From Planctomycetota bacterium (lineage in GTDB: Bacteria > Planctomycetota > UBA8108 > SXIK01), in assembly GCA_965223265.1 (NCBI GenBank), contig OZ244999.1, forward strand, positions 9,115,497 through 9,179,496: 64,000 nucleotides of DNA. Direction: 5' to 3'. This document shows positions 23,083 through 29,641 of this stretch, piece after piece (position 1 is the first letter of the stretch; every line of letters begins with the position of its first letter). Below the pieces are notes generated by a model. It saw only the letters and a program-made list of their open reading frames with translations, searched no databases and was not told the DNA's origin. The position numbers and the translations under genes were made by a program.

Positions 23083-23307
23083 CCTAGGACCTTGCCAGCG
23101 GAAGTTGAGGAATTGGAGCATTCTAAGTTAATCGCCCACAAGATCTCTTCCAAGGGCGAATGCGAGGTGCGGCACTCCAGCTCGCGGCCGATGGTAGACC
23201 GGATTTGTCAGCTCATGGCACAATGTTGTCGTATCCCGTTATCCTCATGTCGTTGTCCACGGCGGTCTGTTTTGTTGCTTCCACCGGCGCTGCGCGAGTG
23301 TACATCC

Positions 23308-25659
23308 ATGAGACTCATGTCGATTCGGTCGATGCGTCCGCTGCTTCTATGTTTCCTTCCTTCGATCTTAAGTGGGGTCGCGTTCGCCGAAGAGCGTCGC
23401 ATCACAAATGCCGCGCACGTTGTCTTTCTGATCGGCGAGCGTGAGTATGATACTCGTCGCACTCTCCCGGCGTTCGCCGCCGATGAACTCATTTCGCGCG
23501 GTCTGCGCTGTACTTTTGTGCACGCGGATCCGGATGACCCAAACCAGTTTCCTGGGATCGCCGCGGTCGCTGATGCCGACTTGGTGTTTGTCAGCGTCAG
23601 ACGGAGAACGCCGCCGATCCCTCAGTTGGCGTTTCTGCGTCAACATTTGGCCGCTGGGAAGCCGCTCGTGGGAATCCGTACAGCGAGTCATGCGTGGGAT
23701 GCTCCACCGCCGCCCGGGCACGACCGTTGGGAACGCTTTGATCGCGAGGTTTTCGGTATGCACTACCAGCGACACTACGGCAACAAGCCGCCGGAGGATC
23801 CGCCGTCGTTGATTCGTGTTGCCTCAGCGGCGACCGATCATCCGATTCTCAAGGGCGTGCGCCGGGATGAGTTTCCTGTAACGTCCCATCTTTACCGCAA
23901 TCGAGATCCGGGTGCGCAAACGACGACGTTGATGACCGGATGGGTTCCAGATCGTGGCGAACGCGAGCCGGTCGCGTGGACGAACGCGTTCAACGGTGCG
24001 CGCGTGTTTTACACGTCGCTTGGCGATCCCGAGGACCTGCGGCGTCAAGCGGTACGCCTCCTGCTTGTCAACGCCGTATATTGGGCACTCGGTGAGCCTT
24101 CGCCTGGCACGCTCTTGAGTGCCGCCGTGCCCGACGCCATCGAACTTTCGCTACGGCGGCGTGACGTCCTCACCGGAGAGGTGCAGATGACGAAGGAGCG
24201 CGTTGATCCCGTGCGGGTGGGTATCGTTGCCATCGATATGTGGAATTGGCACTGGTGCAAAACCTCGGCGGCGCGCGTCGGTGCGTTGGTGCCGCGCATG
24301 AATCGCGTCTTTGAGGCGGCGCGTCACCTCGGGATGCAGGTTTTCTTGTGTCCAACGGACGCTGTAGAAGCGTACGTGGGTACGCCGCAGCGCGAGATCG
24401 TTTTTGCCATGCCGCGCCATGCCATGCCCGATCCTGTCGACGTCAACTGTCCGCGCCCTCGCGACGGTGGTGGTTGCACTTGCGGCGTCGAGCGCTGCAA
24501 GGGAAACTACGGCTGGGACGCGATGCATCCTGACCTGATCATAGGTAGTCGCGATCTCATGCCGAACGACCCTGAGGTCCTCTACTCGATCTGTCAACAG
24601 CGGGGCATCACACATCTTATCTACACCGGTGTTCATACTCAGGTCTGCGTGCTCAACAAGTCAGTAGGTGTACGTCGTATGAAGGCAATAGGCCTCGAGT
24701 GCATTCTGGCACGCGATCTAACCGATGCGCACGGAGTCTATCAGCCCGATGAAGGTTTCACTCCAGACGACCTGACTGCCGAGGTGATCGAGCACTTCGA
24801 GAAACATCTGGTGGCGACCGTCGACCTTGGCGACGAGATGAGGAACGCCGGGTTCTGGGACGATTCCGTGCGAATCGATCCTGTTCGATTCGCGCCGTGG
24901 GGAAAGCGAGAGCGGCCCCACCTCTTCGAGAAGGAAGTAGTCGTGACGCTCACAGATCCTCTCCACGAGGGTGCGGAGATTCGTTATACACTCGACGACA
25001 GCGATCCGCATGACGACTCACAACTCTACGAGCAGCCGCTCCAATTGAGCGCCAGCCAGACGGTGCGAGCGGCTTCCTTTATCGGCGACCGACAGCTCAA
25101 CGACGTCTCTGAAGGCCATTTCGTCCGGTTGGGCTCCTCGCCTCCTGCGCCCGATATTCACCTCTCAGAGATCGAGCCGCTGCGAGTCGCGGGCCCTGGC
25201 CACTCACCGTCCGCAACGCGGCATCGTTTCTCTGGGCTCTCGAATCCGCCGCAGAAAGATCGCAGCAACCGCAAGGCAGCACTGCGGATGCGCGGGCAGA
25301 CGTACGCGCGGGGAATGGGAGTTCATGCGCCGAACCAGCTGCTCTACCGCGTCGAGCCGCACTACGAGAGGTTCGTTGCGCTCGCGGGAATCGATGAAGA
25401 GATTCTTGAGTACAACAACGCGTCGAATCTCGGGCGGTTTCCTAGCGTCATTTTTCGCGTTTACATCGACGGCAAGCTGCGCGCCGAGAGCCCGGTGATG
25501 AAAATCTCGGAAGAACCATGGCGTTTCGACGTGTCGATTCGAAAGGGCAGTCGGCAGATCAGCTTGGTCGCCACAGACGCGGGCGACGGGAACAAACTCG
25601 ATCTGGCGAACTGGGCGAACGCCGGATTCGTGATCAGGAAGGCCGCGGCCGGTCGGTGA
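23308..25659 (+). CDS. Secreted multidomain protein: ThuA-like + isochorismatase-like + FN3/chitobiase-like + NPCBM/NEW2
   Basis: Signal peptide ending AFA; [22 protein letters not shown] (ThuA); IDMW...GVHTQVCV...RDLTDA (isochorismatase); [10 protein letters not shown]; RGMGVHA...GIDEE...ANWANAGF (NPCBM). Confidence 0.8.
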
Positions 25660-25664
25660 TGGTG

Positions 25665-25970
25665 GCAGAGGCGGAAGCAGAGGCGGAAGCAGAGGCGGAA
25701 GCAGAGGCGGAAGCAGAGGCGGAATCAGAGACAGAATCAGAGACAGAATCAGAGACAGAATCAGAGACAGAATCAGAGACAGAATCAGAGACAGAATCAG
25801 AGACAGAATCAGAGACAGAATCAGAGACAGAAGCAGAGACAGAAGCAGAGACAGAAGCAGAGACAGAAGCAGAGACAGAAGCAGAGACAGAAGCAGAGAC
25901 AGAAGCAGAGACAGAAGCAGAGACAGAAGCAGAGACAGAAGCAGAGACAGAAGCAGAGACAGAAGCAGAG
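25665..25970. repeat. Perfect 12-bp tandem array in three blocks: (GCAGAGGCGGAA)5 (TCAGAGACAGAA)9 (GCAGAGACAGAA)11 + GCAGAG
   Basis: Read directly; begins 5 bp after the stop of the upstream gene. Confidence 0.97.
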
Positions 25971-25997
25971 AAGAGGTGTGCCGCCAAGGGGCGTTTG

Positions 25998-26170
25998 CGG
26001 CGGCGGTATTGTCGAGCGTAACGGAAGCAGAGCCGGCCTCAAGGGTGCCCTCGCTGCGCTCGGCGCTTCGCGCCCTTGACCCCGGCTCTGCTTCCGTTGG
26101 CGGGGGTGAAACGCCGCCGCGTCGGGCGTGCGGCGAGAGTTTCACTCAACCGGTTGACCGGAGTCTTCTC
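25998..26170 (+). promoter_or_regulatory. Conserved hairpin leader, copy 1 (putative ssDNA promoter or structured RNA)
   Basis: 17-bp perfect arms 26020-26036 / 26082-26098 around a 42-nt core (26039-26080) identical to copy 2; the function is inferred. Confidence 0.75.
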
Positions 26171-26494
26171 ATGGGCTTTCTCGCTTTGGATCACTCTGTT
26201 GGTATCGTTCGTCAGTTGCGTCCGCTTGTCTCGCGTGTGCGTCGTCACGACTCGAAGCTTGCCGCTCAGCTGCGCGACGCGGGGTCCTCCGTGGCGCTGA
26301 ATTTGGGCGAGGGCAATCGGCGCTCTGGTCGTGACCGCGGGCATCTCTGGCGTGTTGCTTCAGGCAGTGCCGAAGAGGTGCGTACGGCGCTCCGTGTTGC
26401 TGAGGCTTGGGGCTACGTCGATGCGCAGGAGACAGCTCCGGTGCTTGCGGACATCGACGAGCTGCAGGCGATGCTTTGGAAGCTGACGCGCTGA
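26171..26494 (+). CDS. Four-helix bundle protein (23S-IVS/TIGR02436-like, Avd-like fold), copy 1, 107 aa
   Basis: LAAQLRDAGSSVALNLGEG...WRVASGSAEEV matches the family pattern Q..RA..S...N..EG...A.GS..E; GGAG RBS. Confidence 0.88.
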   Translation: MGFLALDHSVGIVRQLRPLVSRVRRHDSKLAAQLRDAGSSVALNLGEGNRRSGRDRGHLWRVASGSAEEVRTALRVAEAWGYVDAQETAPVLADIDELQAMLWKLTR

Positions 26495-26506
26495 GCTTGG
26501 GGTTTT

Positions 26507-26539
26507 GGGCCCGTCGTGCTTTTTTGGCGCGGCGGGTTT
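26507..26539 (+). terminator. G.U-rich hairpin just after four-helix copy 1 (possible terminator)
   Basis: GGGCCCGTCGTGC-T6G-GCGCGGCGGGTTT; the U tail is short. Confidence 0.4.
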
Positions 26540-26775
26540 GAGGCGGAACCGGAGGCAGAGACAGACCCGACAGTTGCATAAGTTTTCGCAGGAAGGGCTC
26601 AGAAACCCTTTCCCTGAGGTTCGATCGGCAGTTGAAGGACGTCGCGGCGGACCTCACGTTTGGTGAGGTTGACGGTCTGCCGTGTTCCCCCCACGCCCAC
26701 GCACACCCACACGCAAACTCTCACTCAATCGCAATCGCGCACGGTCTTAAGGCGTGTCTTTTTTGCAACGTTGGG

Positions 26776-26888
26776 GTCAGAGTCAGAATCAGAGACGGAT
26801 GACGGATAGAGATACAGAACCAGATGACAGAGTCAGCGACGGAGACAGAATCAGAGACGAGATGACAGAGTCGGAATCAGATCCAGAA
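26776..26888. repeat. Degenerate hexamer array (GTCAGA/ATCAGA/GACAGA/GACGGA)
   Basis: Read directly; same family as the 25665-25970 array; lies downstream of copy 2. Confidence 0.8.
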
Positions 26889-26901
26889 GTCGCCGTGAGC
26901 A

Positions 26902-26927
26902 GCGCCCGCTACGAAAGTAGCGGGCGC
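26902..26927. other. Perfect 11-bp hairpin GCGCCCGCTAC-GAAA-GTAGCGGGCGC after four-helix copy 2
   Basis: Direct inverted repeat; no U tract, so not a clear intrinsic terminator. Confidence 0.7.
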
Positions 26928-26940
26928 ATGGGCGTCTCGC

Positions 26941-27264
26941 TCAGCGCGTGAGGCCGCTGAGAAGAGCCAGGAGTCGATCGAGGGTCTGGAGAGGCACTGA
27001 GACTTCTTCGGCCTTGAGATCGCCCCAGGCCACAGAGAGCTGCAGGGCAGTCTCGACCTCCCGGGCACTGCCGCGCGCAACGCGGTAGAGGTGCAGCCGG
27101 TCTTTCCCAGCGCGCTCGGCACCCTCGGAGAGATTGAGCGCGACCGAAGAAGCAGCCCGCCGAATCTGCCGATGGAGATCGGGATCAAGCCTCCGAAGCC
27201 GCAGCAGTGGAGCCCGCAAATCGCGAATCAAACCGAGACTGACATCGAGAGCGATGAAGCGCAT
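26941..27264 (-). CDS. Four-helix bundle protein, copy 2, 107 aa
   Basis: LHRQIRRAASSVALNLSEG...YRVARGSAREV; 57/107 residues identical to copy 1 by ungapped manual count; GGAGG RBS. Confidence 0.9.
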   Translation of the reverse strand: MRFIALDVSLGLIRDLRAPLLRLRRLDPDLHRQIRRAASSVALNLSEGAERAGKDRLHLYRVARGSAREVETALQLSVAWGDLKAEEVSVPLQTLDRLLALLSGLTR

Positions 27265-27428
27265 GAGAGACCTCCGAAACGGTGAGTCAAGAGCCCGCCG
27301 CATCCGGGCGGCGGTACTCCACCCCCCAACGCGGAGCGGAGGAACTGTCAAGGGCGCGAAGCGCCGAGCGCAGCGAGGGCACCCTTGACAGTTCTGAGCA
27401 CCGCGTAAGCTCGACAAGACCGCCGCCG
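27265..27428 (-). promoter_or_regulatory. Conserved hairpin leader, copy 2
   Basis: 42-nt core 27347-27388 identical to copy 1; arms differ in sequence but remain complementary (ACGCGG..GAACTG / CAGTTC..CCGCGT). Confidence 0.75.
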
Positions 27429-27436
27429 TACGGTGA

Positions 27437-27590
27437 CCCCAACCCACACGGACTCCCACACGGACTCCCACACCCACGGGAACGGCCGACGCGCACGCCG
27501 ACAAGGCCGGACGGCACACGGCGTGTGCCTGCCACGTTGAAGAGGCGCGCACCCACTCCCACACGGACTCCCCCTCCCCCTCCCACGCAA
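27437..27590. repeat. C/A-rich short repeats (CCCACACGGACT x2-3) flanking one REP-like palindrome at 27501-27535
   Basis: The minus strand reads GTGGCAGGCACACGCCGTGTGCCGTCCGGCCTTGT, near-identical to the units at 51710-51927. Confidence 0.85.
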
Positions 27591-27629
27591 CCGCGAACCG
27601 AGTCCCAGGCATCAAAACGAGCGTCCCTC

Positions 27630-28199
27630 TCACCCTTCGATCTCGGCGCGCAGCCACGCCCGTGCCATGTACCAGTCGGCTTCGGCGGTGCGCTGTGAGA
27701 CGTTGAGAGCTGTGGCGACTTCCGGCATGCTCAGGCCGCCGAAGAAGCGGAGCTCGACCACCCGGCTTTTGCGCTCGTCCATTTCGGCGAGCTTCTTGAG
27801 CGCGTCATCGAGCGCGATGAGATCGACCTCCTCCTCGCGATCCTGGGACGACTCAGCCTTGCCGATCGTGATGCGTTGCCACTCCCCACCGCGCTTCTGC
27901 GCCCCTCGGCGGCGGGCATGGTCGATCAGCACTTGGCGCATCACTTTGGCGGCGATGGCCAGAAAGTGAGCGCGACTCTCCCAATCGACCTGATCCTGAT
28001 CGATCACGCGCAGGTAAGCTTCGTGGACGAGTGCCGTCGGCTGCAGCGTGTGGGCGACGCGCTCCCGCCGCAATTGCCCTTGCGCCAGTCGTCGCAGCTC
28101 GTCGTAGACGAGCGGCATGAGCTGCCGCATGGCATCGCCCTCACCCGAACGCGCGCGTTGGAGAAGTCGGGTCACTTCTGCGGGGTCGAGTTCCGTCAC
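27630..28199 (-). CDS. ECF sigma-70 factor, TIGR02999-like (kinase-associated type)
   Basis: VTRLLQ, PLVYDELRRLA, HTLQPTALVHEAYLR, RQVLIDHARRR.A.KRGG, VELRFFGGL, DWYMARAWL. Confidence 0.93.
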   Translation of the reverse strand: MTELDPAEVTRLLQRARSGEGDAMRQLMPLVYDELRRLAQGQLRRERVAHTLQPTALVHEAYLRVIDQDQVDWESRAHFLAIAAKVMRQVLIDHARRRGAQKRGGEWQRITIGKAESSQDREEEVDLIALDDALKKLAEMDERKSRVVELRFFGGLSMPEVATALNVSQRTAEADWYMARAWLRAEIEG

Positions 28200-28285
28200 G
28201 AGCAGTCGTTACCTCGAGTAACTGCTACTGTGCAACTCTCCGTACCCAGTTGCTCGCGACGACATATCAAGCGGCTCGGACGGAA

Positions 28286-29641
28286 CTATCCCATCAGCTC
28301 CGTGATCGGCGTCGGATCGCTCGCGATGTGCACAGGGCGGCCGAGAGGAGTGTAGAGGATCTTGTCCGGGTTGATCCCGAGTTTGCGGTAGATCGTCGAC
28401 ACGAAATTCTCGGGCGACAACACCCGGTCCGCGGCCGAGTAGCCGTGCTTGTCGGTCGAGCCAACGATCTGTCCGCCCGGAGTTCCGCCGCCTGCGAAGA
28501 GGACGCTCATGGCGTTGGACCAGTGATCACGTCCTGCTTTTTTGCGCCCCGGGATGAGGGAAATCTTCGGCGTCCGGCCGAATTCGCCGAGCATGACGAT
28601 GAGCGTCCGTTCGAGAAGCCCTCGGACTTCAAGGTCTTCGATGAGCGCTGACAACGCCGTGTCGAGGCGTGGCACTTGGACGCGATTGCGGTCGAAGATC
28701 TCACTGTGGTGATCCCAGCCATCGTTCTCGATGGTGATGAAGGGGACACCGGCTTCGACAAGACGTCGAGCGAGCAGGGTCTGTTGACCGACTTCGGTGC
28801 GGCCGTATCGATCACGTACACTGTCCGGCTCGCTGTGAACGTCGAACGCCTTCTGAGCTTCGGGCGATGTGATGAGCTGATGGCCTTGGGCGTAGAACTC
28901 ATCCATGGCGACGACCGGATCGGCTGCTGACTCATCGTTGATTCGCAGCAGCTCGTCGACCTCCTGCCGAATCTCCTGACGGCGCAGAAAACGCTCGCCG
29001 CCGAGACCGCGTGGCAAGACGACGTCACGGACGCGAAAATCGGACTTGTTCGGATCGCCGCCGACAACGAATGGAGCGTACTTTGCGCCGAGAAAGTTGG
29101 GTCCGCCGGAGCGCGTCATCGTTGGCAGCGAGAAGTATCCAGGCATGCCCTCGGGCGCCGTCCGTTCGTGAGCCGTGATCGATCCGAGGCTGGGATGGAA
29201 ACTGACGAACGCGCCACACGATACCGGTATGCGCGTCGGCATGCCCGTCATCATGTAGTGGTTGCCGGCGCCATGGTTGCCGTGGTTGTGGCGAATCGAG
29301 CGAACCACCGCGAGCTTGTCAGCCATCGCGGCGAGCCGCGGCAGCGTCTCGGAGAAGCGAACCCCAGGGATTTTCGTCGGGATGGAGCCGATCTCGCCGC
29401 GGATCTCGCTCGGAGCGTCGGGCTTGGGGTCGAAGGTCTCAAAGTGAGACGGTCCGCCGTCCAGGAAGTAGAGAATGCAACTGTCGGCCTGCCGCTCGCT
29501 TGGGTCGCCAGCCGCCCCTTGCGCTCTGAGGGCGTTGACCAAGCCCCCGCCACCGAAAAACGATACGCCACCGAAGTAGCCGCCGACTCCGAGCTTGAGA
29601 CAGGATCGACGGGTCATTCCATCGCAATTGCGACTTGCCAT
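28286..29641 (-). CDS. DUF1501 domain protein (Tat-like signal)
   Basis: CDGMTRRSCL, GGPSHFETFDPKP, LLARRLVEAGV, GWDHH, GEFGRTP, GRDHW. Confidence 0.93.
   Translation of the reverse strand: MASRNCDGMTRRSCLKLGVGGYFGGVSFFGGGGLVNALRAQGAAGDPSERQADSCILYFLDGGPSHFETFDPKPDAPSEIRGEIGSIPTKIPGVRFSETLPRLAAMADKLAVVRSIRHNHGNHGAGNHYMMTGMPTRIPVSCGAFVSFHPSLGSITAHERTAPEGMPGYFSLPTMTRSGGPNFLGAKYAPFVVGGDPNKSDFRVRDVVLPRGLGGERFLRRQEIRQEVDELLRINDESAADPVVAMDEFYAQGHQLITSPEAQKAFDVHSEPDSVRDRYGRTEVGQQTLLARRLVEAGVPFITIENDGWDHHSEIFDRNRVQVPRLDTALSALIEDLEVRGLLERTLIVMLGEFGRTPKISLIPGRKKAGRDHWSNAMSVLFAGGGTPGGQIVGSTDKHGYSAADRVLSPENFVSTIYRKLGINPDKILYTPLGRPVHIASDPTPITELMG

Follow-up and report, generated by a model that had tools for sequence, protein, structure and literature searches.

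Why should a bacterium set the same long hairpin in front of two small genes that run toward each other, when the proteins that they encode agree at barely more than half of their positions, and what might such a hairpin do there? The question is raised by a stretch of 64,000 nucleotides from a Planctomycetota bacterium ("the window" in what follows: NCBI GenBank assembly GCA_965223265.1, contig OZ244999.1, positions 9,115,497 to 9,179,496 of the forward strand), which is the last 64 kb of a single 9.18-Mb contig, 60.8% G+C, and which holds two convergent genes for four-helix-bundle proteins, each behind a structured leader. The phenomenon is real and much larger than this pair alone could reveal: the window genes are members of a family of about 40 self-contained cassettes. 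As to what the leader does, the reading that we favor, at a probability of roughly 0.45 and judging from sequence, is that a cis-acting leader RNA made from the sense strand gates the translation of a spreading four-helix-bundle cassette. What we have in hand for it is the copy number of the cassette, its linkage to one gene family, its conserved structure, the burial of the Shine–Dalgarno (SD) sequence in relatives, a bias of folding toward the sense strand, and a patchy distribution. The main parts of the pair, in window coordinates, are these:

25997-26170, + strand: leader of copy 1 (type A), from sequence, fold, covariation and a covariance-model match of 144.4 bits
26039-26080, + strand: conserved 42-nt core of copy 1, with helix P1 (TCAAGGG/CCCTTGA), an 18-nt 5' bulge (TGCCCTCGCTGCGCTCGG) and the P2 hairpin CGC-TTC-GCG
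26171-26494, + strand: type-A four-helix-bundle gene, 107 aa (PF05635, 53.8 bits; TIGR02436, 56.6 bits; PDB 2GSC, E = 3.6e-5)
26941-27264, - strand: type-B four-helix-bundle gene, 107 aa (PF05635, 51.0 bits; TIGR02436, 52.1 bits)
27265-27432, - strand: leader of copy 2 (type B), from sequence, fold and a covariance-model match of 158.4 bits

Both proteins score above the curated cut-offs of the two "four helix bundle protein" profiles (33.8 bits for PF05635 and 24 bits for TIGR02436), and the nearest solved relative of the type-A protein, by sequence similarity, is 2GSC. They are identical at 57 of 107 positions without a gap, so that the description of the pair in the initial annotation, which was made from the window sequence alone, as convergent paralogues about 53% identical stands as it was given; neither protein matched a defense family in PADLOC. 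The same annotation called them Avd-like, after the accessory protein of a diversity-generating retroelement (DGR); the family assignment holds, and no reverse transcriptase, which a DGR would have, lies beside any unit.

The leaders are more alike than the coding sequences that they precede. They are about 170 nt long and colinear, as had been noticed at the outset, and their 42-nt core is identical at 26039-26080 (+) and 27347-27388 (-), where 100 shuffles lead one to expect 0 such cores. Around the core, copy 1 has these parts of the hairpin that had been claimed for it: 17-bp arms (AACGGAAGCAGAGCCGG / CCGGCTCTGCTTCCGTT, 26020-26036 with 26082-26098), an unpaired bubble (26007-26019 and 26099-26111), and an outer stem (GCGGCGGCG / CGCCGCCGC, 25997-26006 with 26112-26120), beyond which lie an alternative partner, GCGGCG, at 26130-26135 and a GGAG at 26160-26163. 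In copy 2, the arms are broken by a conserved internal loop (UGCUCAG / CCUCCGCU) and closed below by the outer stem GGCGGCGG/CCGCCGCC. Folded as RNA, the two leaders reach minimum free energies of -102.6 kcal/mol (z = -4.64) and -90.7 kcal/mol (z = -3.74), respectively, and neither value was matched by any of 200 shuffles.

How far does this arrangement extend? A search for the core across the 9.18-Mb genome carries it far beyond one pair: there are 34 copies at three mismatches or fewer (the reversed control gave 0) and 38 at six or fewer. Of the 36 PF05635 genes above cut-off, 34 are preceded on their own strand by a core, at 158-174 nt before the Pfam match; the remaining two are one gene with a diverged core and one that has lost its hairpin. 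Conversely, the four cores without a scoring gene stand before genes that are frameshifted, internally deleted, or truncated. The proteins come in two types, A (MGFLALDH...) and B (MRFIALDVS...), each behind the same core, and seven convergent pairs, the window pair among them, each bring together an A and a B. The genome's own copies are nearly identical to one another, and the sequence common to all units begins 41-45 nt before the core, at the outer stem, with boundaries blurred by variable repeat tracts. The order within a cassette is a repeat tract of hexamer period, an interrupted hairpin of about 145 nt, the SD, the 107-aa PF05635/TIGR02436 gene, and a 3' hairpin. An origin of the core from ribosomal RNA (rRNA) or another locus of the genome was considered and dropped, just three loose matches being found outside the units.

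A covariance model (R1) built from the leaders of this genome matches directly upstream of PF05635 genes in two relatives: 11 times in G007, which belongs to another family of the order, and two or three times in G021, which belongs to another family of the class. Beyond these two, it matched none among 40 relatives or 150 sampled genomes of the phylum; the R1 leader does occur in further planctomycete metagenome-assembled genomes (MAGs). The distribution is patchy, with PF05635 in none of three genomes of the same family and the MAG copies often at contig ends.

Comparison of the copies indicates that the whole leader forms a single long, interrupted hairpin, in which structure is what has been conserved. 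When 20 distinct leaders from this genome are set side by side, both partners have changed in 11 of the 44 predicted pairs. The covariance-model comparison that had been suggested for the leader, made over 35 sense elements from several phyla, finds standard pairs in 94.5% of cells (71.5% in shuffles), changes on both sides in 30 of 42 pairs, and a covariation score of 0.50 vs. 0.12, one that 0 of 500 shuffles reached and slid controls (at most 0.12) did not approach, all of these being figures that flatter the fold somewhat for a reason given below. A measure independent of the alignment agrees: a leader's own arms pair at -29.9 kcal/mol vs. -18.6 for foreign arms, and in 15 of 27 cases no foreign arm pairs better than the leader's own. 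The tip is a 7-bp P1 helix, TCAAGGN/NCCTTGA, whose seventh position is G-C, C-G, U-A, or A-U across genomes; inside it sits the 18-nt 5' bulge UGCCCUCGCUGCGCUCGG, shortened in G021, and above it sits a triloop-closed P2 of 3-4 bp that also covaries (CGC/GCG, CGGC/GCCG, CGAC/GUCG, CGCC/GGCG). Rfam has no family for any of this, to judge from the window between 25000 and 28500 (no match at E <=1) and from five other module loci (none at E <=0.1), and we found no description of the leader in the literature on the PF05635/TIGR02436 family, a search that included a 9-mer of the core. The hairpin module is thus unannotated and outside the RNA family catalogue.

Is it, then, an RNA? The best argument comes from the relatives. 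In four of five other planctomycete leaders folded, drawn from four lineages, the outermost helix buries the SD, which lies 4-9 nt before the AUG, and it does so with helices of different sequence: CCUUGU/ACAAGG, CUCCUUG/CAAGGAG, UUUCCUU/AAGGAAA, and UCCUUUC/GAAAGGA. Such a helix makes sense only with both of its strands in one mRNA, as a design at the level of RNA. A PF05635 gene with an unrelated leader, in genome G005 (locus L203, G005:C56:6800-7671), has its SD within the 3' strand of a perfect 32-bp hairpin; at this locus, a long (CGGACT)n tract precedes the hairpin, and the SD stands 6 nt before the ATG. The strands of the element also differ in how well they fold. Of 32 elements, 28 fold more stably as the sense strand than as the antisense strand, the gap between the strands being 7.0 kcal/mol on average and 7-18 kcal/mol for most gene-linked leaders, and in covarying helices read on the sense strand, G-T outnumbers A-C by 27 cells to 8, a ratio that model fitting may tilt toward G-T. 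One leader type, moreover, is common to A and B although the proteins are just 53% identical. The clade of the window (this genome, G007, and G021) is arranged differently: some 45 nt separate the outer helix from the SD, and the CCGCCGC strand has two possible partners, the 5' GCGGCGG of the outer stem and a 3' GCGGCG, an alternative compatible with a switch. A new cis-regulatory RNA had been offered at the start only as a fallback; it is what the comparative evidence of covariation, SD burial, and sense-strand bias favors.

The mechanism that we propose would run as follows. Sense transcription would yield an mRNA with the hairpin as its 5' leader, folded into an outer stem, a bubble, covarying arms, and a terminal core. 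So folded, it would restrain translation of a small, probably nucleic-acid-binding protein, in the sister lineages by way of an anti-SD stretch that pairs with the SD. The invariant tip would be the likely binding site of a trans factor, for which the candidates are the four-helix-bundle protein itself, in an autoregulatory loop, or a double-strand RNase acting on the long arms.

Before we weigh this reading, two further sets of facts have to be put beside it. The first is that the hairpin module is found without the gene. A 20-nt piece of the core, scanned against 185,579 species genomes, gave at least 107 stretches, of which 80 are listed as loci, and R1 matches at E <0.01 in 23 of those 80, in Planctomycetota, Acidobacteriota/Thermoanaerobaculia, Chloroflexi, and Proteobacteria. 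Within a set of 160 loci, there are 154 sites with the 20-nt pattern, 57 of them with a closing P1 and nine of these with a downstream four-helix-bundle open reading frame (ORF); all nine gene-linked elements that could be placed are planctomycete. Gene-less copies retain the full architecture of outer stem, bubble, arms, and tip. In other phyla, then, the core is not linked to these genes, which tells in part against the proposal of the initial annotation. The neighbors of gene-less copies include a TrwC relaxase, a mob-like operon, a primase-helicase, an integrase, a group II intron reverse transcriptase, IS110 transposases, and toxin–antitoxin genes. In L213, the module begins 2 nt after the stop codon of the TrwC relaxase; in L157 and L097, it directly follows the mob-like operon; in L113 and L118, it lies near primase-helicase genes; and in L247, L259, and L267 (to which L278 is identical), an IS110-family transposase directly adjoins it.

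In this genome, too, the leaders have met mobile DNA. The initial annotation found no transposase or reverse transcriptase nearby, and indeed there is none inside 25000-28400; elsewhere, however, a 2.7-kb element with a 702-aa large serine recombinase sits inside six such leaders, in copies at least 99.8% identical:

2581356-2583464, 6779236-6781344, 7186575-7188683, 8598309-8600417, 8835856-8837964, 8980044-8982152: serine-recombinase element copies

All six have entered type-B leaders at one and the same point, where the left arm meets the core (one of these leaders is partly deleted), so that the conserved hairpin seems, from these positions, to be the attachment site of the element. Across phyla, mobile elements either carry the module or use it as a target. 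Apart from this, five tandem copies of an IS110-family element (487971-495217), one every 1.7-1.8 kb or so, run up to the repeat tract that precedes the cassette at 496135, and the same element adjoins the cassette at 906376; it may target GAGRCR hexamer arrays.

The second set of facts concerns replication. By cumulative GC skew, the origin is at about 7.95 Mb, where a dnaA homologue lies (7,963,028), and the terminus is at about 3.52 Mb. (Two DnaA-family genes are present, a weaker-scoring one at the skew minimum, 7963028-7963483, and a stronger one 2.6 Mb away, 5353690-5354199.) Relative to this origin, every type-A unit that has a hairpin, 17 with a core and the diverged one at 7739161, runs co-directionally with replication, 18 of 18 against a genome baseline of 2314 in 4424 genes of at least 250 aa (52.3%; p ~9e-6), which makes the sense strand of type A the lagging-strand template. 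In all seven pairs, A is co-directional and B is head-on; type-B singles are weakly polarized (10 head-on vs. 4 co-directional). In the sole head-on A gene (near 5176300, +), a single deletion between CGT(A/T)ACCG microhomologies has removed arms, core, and bubble but left the ORF intact. Other repeat modules of the intergenic region show nothing like the strictness of type A: one that resembles the repetitive extragenic palindrome (REP) has no polarity at 45:52, another stands at 12:11, and a third is moderate at 28:12. The cores also cluster, 21 of 38 lying within about 1.25 Mb of the origin (p ~2e-4). Hairpin stability was tried as the cause of the polarity and set aside, the sense strand being the more stable in both A and B, which leaves their opposite orientations unexplained.

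With these facts in view, what speaks against a translational gate can be gathered in one place. No sigma-70-like promoter was found on the coding strand in the conserved part of the unit, and a consensus promoter scan of 25500-27800 returned one site only, an unrelated one; we infer co-transcription of leader and gene, just as we infer which trans factor acts and in which direction regulation goes, and the missing promoter counts against the first of these. In this genome, G007, and G021, the SD lies outside the outer helix, and for them the gate is extrapolated from sister lineages. Only 9 of the 57 elements with a complete core, meaning a closing P1, in public genomes and metagenomes have the four-helix-bundle gene, and about four fifths are gene-less. 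The covariation measures are inflated, the pair-count alignment having been fitted to the model's own structure and most of its rows being paralogues. The polarity of type A and the loss of the hairpin from the head-on A gene are without an explanation at the level of RNA. The hairpin module, finally, is older and wider than its link to the gene, and it also has a life as DNA, whether in copying, in mobility, or as a target of insertion, that goes beyond what an RNA leader accounts for.

Could the leader be a promoter instead? The initial annotation had proposed that, when the non-coding (template) strand is single-stranded and folds, the distal arm and the bubble provide a -35 and a pre-melted -10 from which RNA polymerase reads into the gene, as in the single-stranded-DNA (ssDNA) promoters of the Frpo/ssi kind reportedly described by Masai and Arai in 1997. 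The sites themselves are where they were said to be, TTGAGG-N16-TACGCT in copy 1 and TTGACA-N15-TAAGCT in copy 2, and neither gene-facing TTGAC in the window has a TAnnnT 14-19 nt after it, again as claimed. The geometry is kept on the non-coding strand more often than chance allows, TTGAnn-N15/16-TAnnnT being present in 25 of 32 parsed leaders here, 6 of 6 in G007, and 3 of 3 in G021 and on the coding strand of no leader set; the seven leaders without it have had the left arm replaced by an insertion (three), are truncated (one), or read GTGCG for GTACG (three), and the inner bases of the hexamer vary (TACGCT, TACGAT, TAAGCT, TACACT, TACAAT, TACCCT, TAGCGT). The putative -10 falls in the unpaired bubble, transcription from the predicted start would put the CGCCGC...GCGGCG hairpin at the very 5' end of the mRNA, and no rival coding-strand promoter that is conserved was recognized. 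The replication polarity of the units implies that ssDNA biology matters somewhere, and a paired type B, being head-on, has its template strand on the lagging-strand template; gene-less copies beside relaxases and toxin–antitoxin genes resemble the leading-region islands described in PMC11541004. Yet at N15-18, the hexamer is gone from all five other planctomycete four-helix-bundle leaders, two of which have TACGGT at N14, and from all eight gene-less elements, so that its conservation stops at three genomes. Spacers of 15-16 nt are short, the hexamers match TATAAT at three to five of six positions and went unflagged by the consensus scan, and the same hexamers in duplex DNA point away from the gene. 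Type A, window copy 1 included, has its coding and not its template strand on the lagging-strand template (18/18); the template strand of copy 1 would thus rarely be single-stranded at the fork, which counts against the model for this copy. The better folder is the sense strand, both by energy and by the G-T excess, and the burial of the SD in four lineages belongs to RNA. Candidate Frpo promoters are described in PMC11541004 by a hairpin, a -35, a -10, an A+T-rich UP element, and an orientation on the T strand next to the origin of transfer (oriT). The leaders fit this description only partly: there is a long hairpin before a small gene, with -35/-10-like hexamers on the folding strand and a -10 in a bubble, but the units stand in many copies on a chromosome, neither an oriT nor a relaxase was found, the hexamers are limited to one clade, leader A has no match among 72,556 plasmid records (blastn), a UP element is not apparent in leaders of about 70% G+C (no scan was run for it), and the features of the sense strand point to RNA. 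All told, we think that the promoter made of folded DNA is quite unlikely, and at best a matter of one clade. An ordinary duplex serves no better. A palindromic core might be an operator between back-to-back -35s, with a divergent transcript through the repeat tract and the protein as a DNA-binding regulator; CCCTTGA is on both strands because P1 is palindromic, the outward-facing -35/-10 is conserved in three genomes, and the core is invariant in sequence, not in structure alone, across units whose proteins are 53% identical. A duplex operator, however, gives no reason to expect arms and outer stems that covary, no -10 stands on the side that faces the gene, related lineages lack the outward promoter, and no solved relative of the family is known to be a DNA-binding regulator, the link to 2GSC being one of sequence similarity only. 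This we regard as very improbable.

The more serious challenge comes from DNA biology of another kind. A palindromic module, of the REP, enterobacterial repetitive intergenic consensus (ERIC), or miniature inverted-repeat transposable element type, might form an ssDNA hairpin that is handled at the fork and copied strand-specifically with its polarity preserved, effects on RNA being secondary and the gene being something carried or abutted in planctomycetes. This is possible, although on balance we would still bet against it. It takes in the 18 of 18 co-directional A units and the common polarity of the seven pairs, measured from an origin that GC skew and the dnaA homologue both support; the lone head-on A gene, which lost its hairpin to a microhomology deletion; the crowding of cores toward the origin; the near-identical copies; the patchy distribution within the family; and the gene-less modules of Acidobacteriota, Thermoanaerobaculia, Chloroflexi, and Proteobacteria amid genes of mobile elements. 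Polarity-preserving copying linked to ssDNA is, indeed, the simplest idea for the type-A orientation. What it wants is an enzyme: the genome has no MobA/MobL, and its Y1_Tnp matches are three, all weak (27.3 bits at best) and all far from the units; one further weak match lies about 0.9 kb from the module in L159. IS200/IS605 elements have an orientation locked to replication direction and hairpins that are recognized, and the likeness in both respects is plain, but here no Y1 transposase is linked, the ends are undefined, and A and B differ in how strict their polarity is, the B singles being polarized only weakly. Arms that differ and yet stay complementary fit selection on the fold better than they fit terminal repeats recognized by a transposase, and the buried SDs of four lineages are hard to explain by a function in DNA alone. 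A version of the idea that gives the protein a part, in which a strand-specific ssDNA element acts at the fork, type A persists only where its sense strand is the lagging template, the hairpin is copied or the gene switched on there, and the protein is the hairpin's partner, strikes us as doubtful; if it were true, PF05635 genes would be the cargo or the cofactor of a new class of fork-coupled mobile cassettes across phyla. The least probable of the explanations that we have considered is that the leader is a captured part of a mobile element, whether a signal for transfer or replication (such as an oriT/nic hairpin or a single-strand origin) or a guide RNA (such as the bridge or seek RNA of the IS110 family). 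The positions of the module by a TrwC relaxase, a mob-like operon, and primase-helicase genes and directly beside IS110 transposases invite it, and in an alignment of our own, the 5' part of the core agrees with the MOBQ oriT consensus, as given in PMC3832669, at 11 of 13 positions with one gap. Against this stand 38 chromosomal copies in a genome without MobA/MobL (other relaxase families were not searched for there), by which we also dropped MOBQ oriT as an identification; 13 IS110 copies in the genome without the module, whereas all R1 matches of the genome are at units and the module accompanies 34 of 36 four-helix-bundle genes; and the lack of a match in Rfam or in the plasmid records. 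Adjacency to IS110, to the group II intron reverse transcriptase, and to the serine recombinase fits the module as an insertion target equally well.

We return, then, to the leader RNA that gates translation, and ask what it most resembles. Autoregulatory mRNA leaders that sequester the SD are familiar from the translational operators of ribosomal proteins and phages. The likeness lies in a structured 5' untranslated region that occludes the ribosome-binding site of a small nucleic-acid-binding protein, with a loop or bulge as the candidate protein site; the difference lies in the roughly 40 copies per genome, in a module that is shared horizontally and also stands free, and in a binding by the protein that is only putative. 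PF05635 genes also lie inside the intervening sequences of 23S rRNA in Leptospira and others. Genes of the family are often wedged into unrelated loci, as PMC3936711 relates. The rRNA genes and the cassettes have in common the protein family, a tie to a long stem of double-stranded RNA type, and a patchy, mobile-looking distribution, but the units here are not in rRNA, their hairpin precedes the ORF rather than enclosing it, the conserved 42-nt tip occurs gene-less as well, and there are about 38 chromosomal copies with replication polarity. Among intergenic repeats, ERIC, the Correia repeat enclosed element (CREE), and REP with its bacterial interspersed mosaic elements (BIME) are palindromic, fold in RNA, in some cases carry outward promoters, and are targeted by site-specific insertion sequences. 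Like them, the module is an imperfect palindrome of 100-150 nt, multicopy, intergenic, often at the 3' ends of genes, and compensated in its arms; unlike them, it ends in a tip that is asymmetric, strongly conserved, and bulged by 18 nt, and it is joined to a protein gene as leader, shared across phyla, and strictly polarized by replication where the genome's own REP-like module is not.

Several known systems were held up against the units and put down again. For the Avd protein of DGRs, the genome offers RVT_1 matches at 1.90, 3.42, 3.52, and 5.91 Mb, none beside a unit (template and variable repeats were not searched for). On their own account, these four matches (127.7 bits each, in frames of 449-455 aa, at 1895554, 3424405, 3516453, and 5913461, three of the four co-directional with replication) are probably copies of a multicopy group II intron. 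The attC sites of integrons have R''/R' boxes, RYYYAAC ... GTTRRRY, as their outermost helix and stand in a cassette array beside an integrase; here the outer helices are GCGGCGG/CCGCCGC, CGACGCTCCG/CGGAGCGTCG, and others, AAC/GTT falls inside the bubble, and the units are single or paired rather than in arrays. A HEPN-like Rx4-6H motif was dropped when its histidine proved not to be conserved in relatives.

The surroundings of the pair are repetitive throughout, the entire intergenic stretch 25640-27600 consisting of repeated DNA modules:

25640-25975, + strand: tract of 12-nt simple repeats, (GACAGAAKCAGA)n, read directly, with hundreds of BLAST matches genome-wide
26510-26536, + strand: 3' hairpin of unit A (CCCGTCGTGC-TTTTTT-GGCGCGGCGGG), read directly, with two T-G wobbles on the sense strand
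26540-26880, no strand: spacer between genes A and B, with the other repeated modules "mid-a" and "mid-b" and GA-rich simple repeats
26902-26927, - strand: 3' hairpin of unit B (GCGCCCGCTAC-TTTC-GTAGCGGGCGC), read directly; 10 copies, nine near a core
27433-27600, - strand: upstream tract of unit B, with (GTGGGAGTCCGT)n repeats on the unit's sense strand and a REP-like hairpin module

The stretch of the unit-A 3' hairpin occurs eight times in the genome, seven of them within 1.5 kb of a core, and it is a probable transcript end. The tract before unit A spans from the stop codon of the co-oriented upstream gene (23092-25659) to the leader, and that before unit B extends to the stop codon of a co-oriented extracytoplasmic-function sigma gene (27630-28199). 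Genome-wide, the REP-like module around the hairpin GGCACACGGCGTGTGCC (27470-27570) recurs about 97 times, and in 24 of these cases a cassette core is no more than 1.5 kb away. In the spacer, mid-a (26570-26700, the module with the 28:12 polarity) has 40 copies and no assignment to a gene or RNA family, and mid-b has 23 copies; because 6 of the 40 mid-a copies lie near a core and the rest do not, these modules are independent of the cassette.

Tandem repeats before the leader are a regular companion of the units: an array lies within 400 nt upstream in 29 of 38, compared with 2.5% of random positions, in a genome that holds 615 such arrays (53 kb in total, mostly of period 6, 12, or 18), those around the pair lying at 25640-25975, 26780-26880, and 27440-27470 of the window. 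The leaders of G005, G007, G021, and other MAGs are likewise preceded by repeats, unrelated in sequence and of 6-7 or 12 nt: (CGGACT)n, (GGGAAA)n, (CCGTTC)n, and 7-mers. Two ideas about the tracts were dropped. The arms might have been copied from them, but only the A1 subfamily shares GAAGCAGAG with its array, and other units do no better than shuffles; and the tracts might load Rho as C-rich antisense sites, but their composition is inconsistent between lineages.

What does all of this mean for the family? PF05635/TIGR02436 proteins are abundant and structurally solved, and they are functionally unexplained, turning up wedged into rRNA, CRISPR-Cas, and restriction loci. The cassette gives a testable handle on them: a structured partner of about 145 nt, supported by covariation, with an invariant 18-nt bulge as the candidate binding site. 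In sister lineages, the translational design is clear, and the module, unannotated as it is, has nevertheless spread over several phyla in the company of mobile elements. The polarity of type A and the site-specific insertion of the serine recombinase imply that the element matters at the level of DNA too, and together, these properties make it a compact system in which to study the interplay of a hairpin repeat, a small nucleic-acid-binding protein, and the replication fork.

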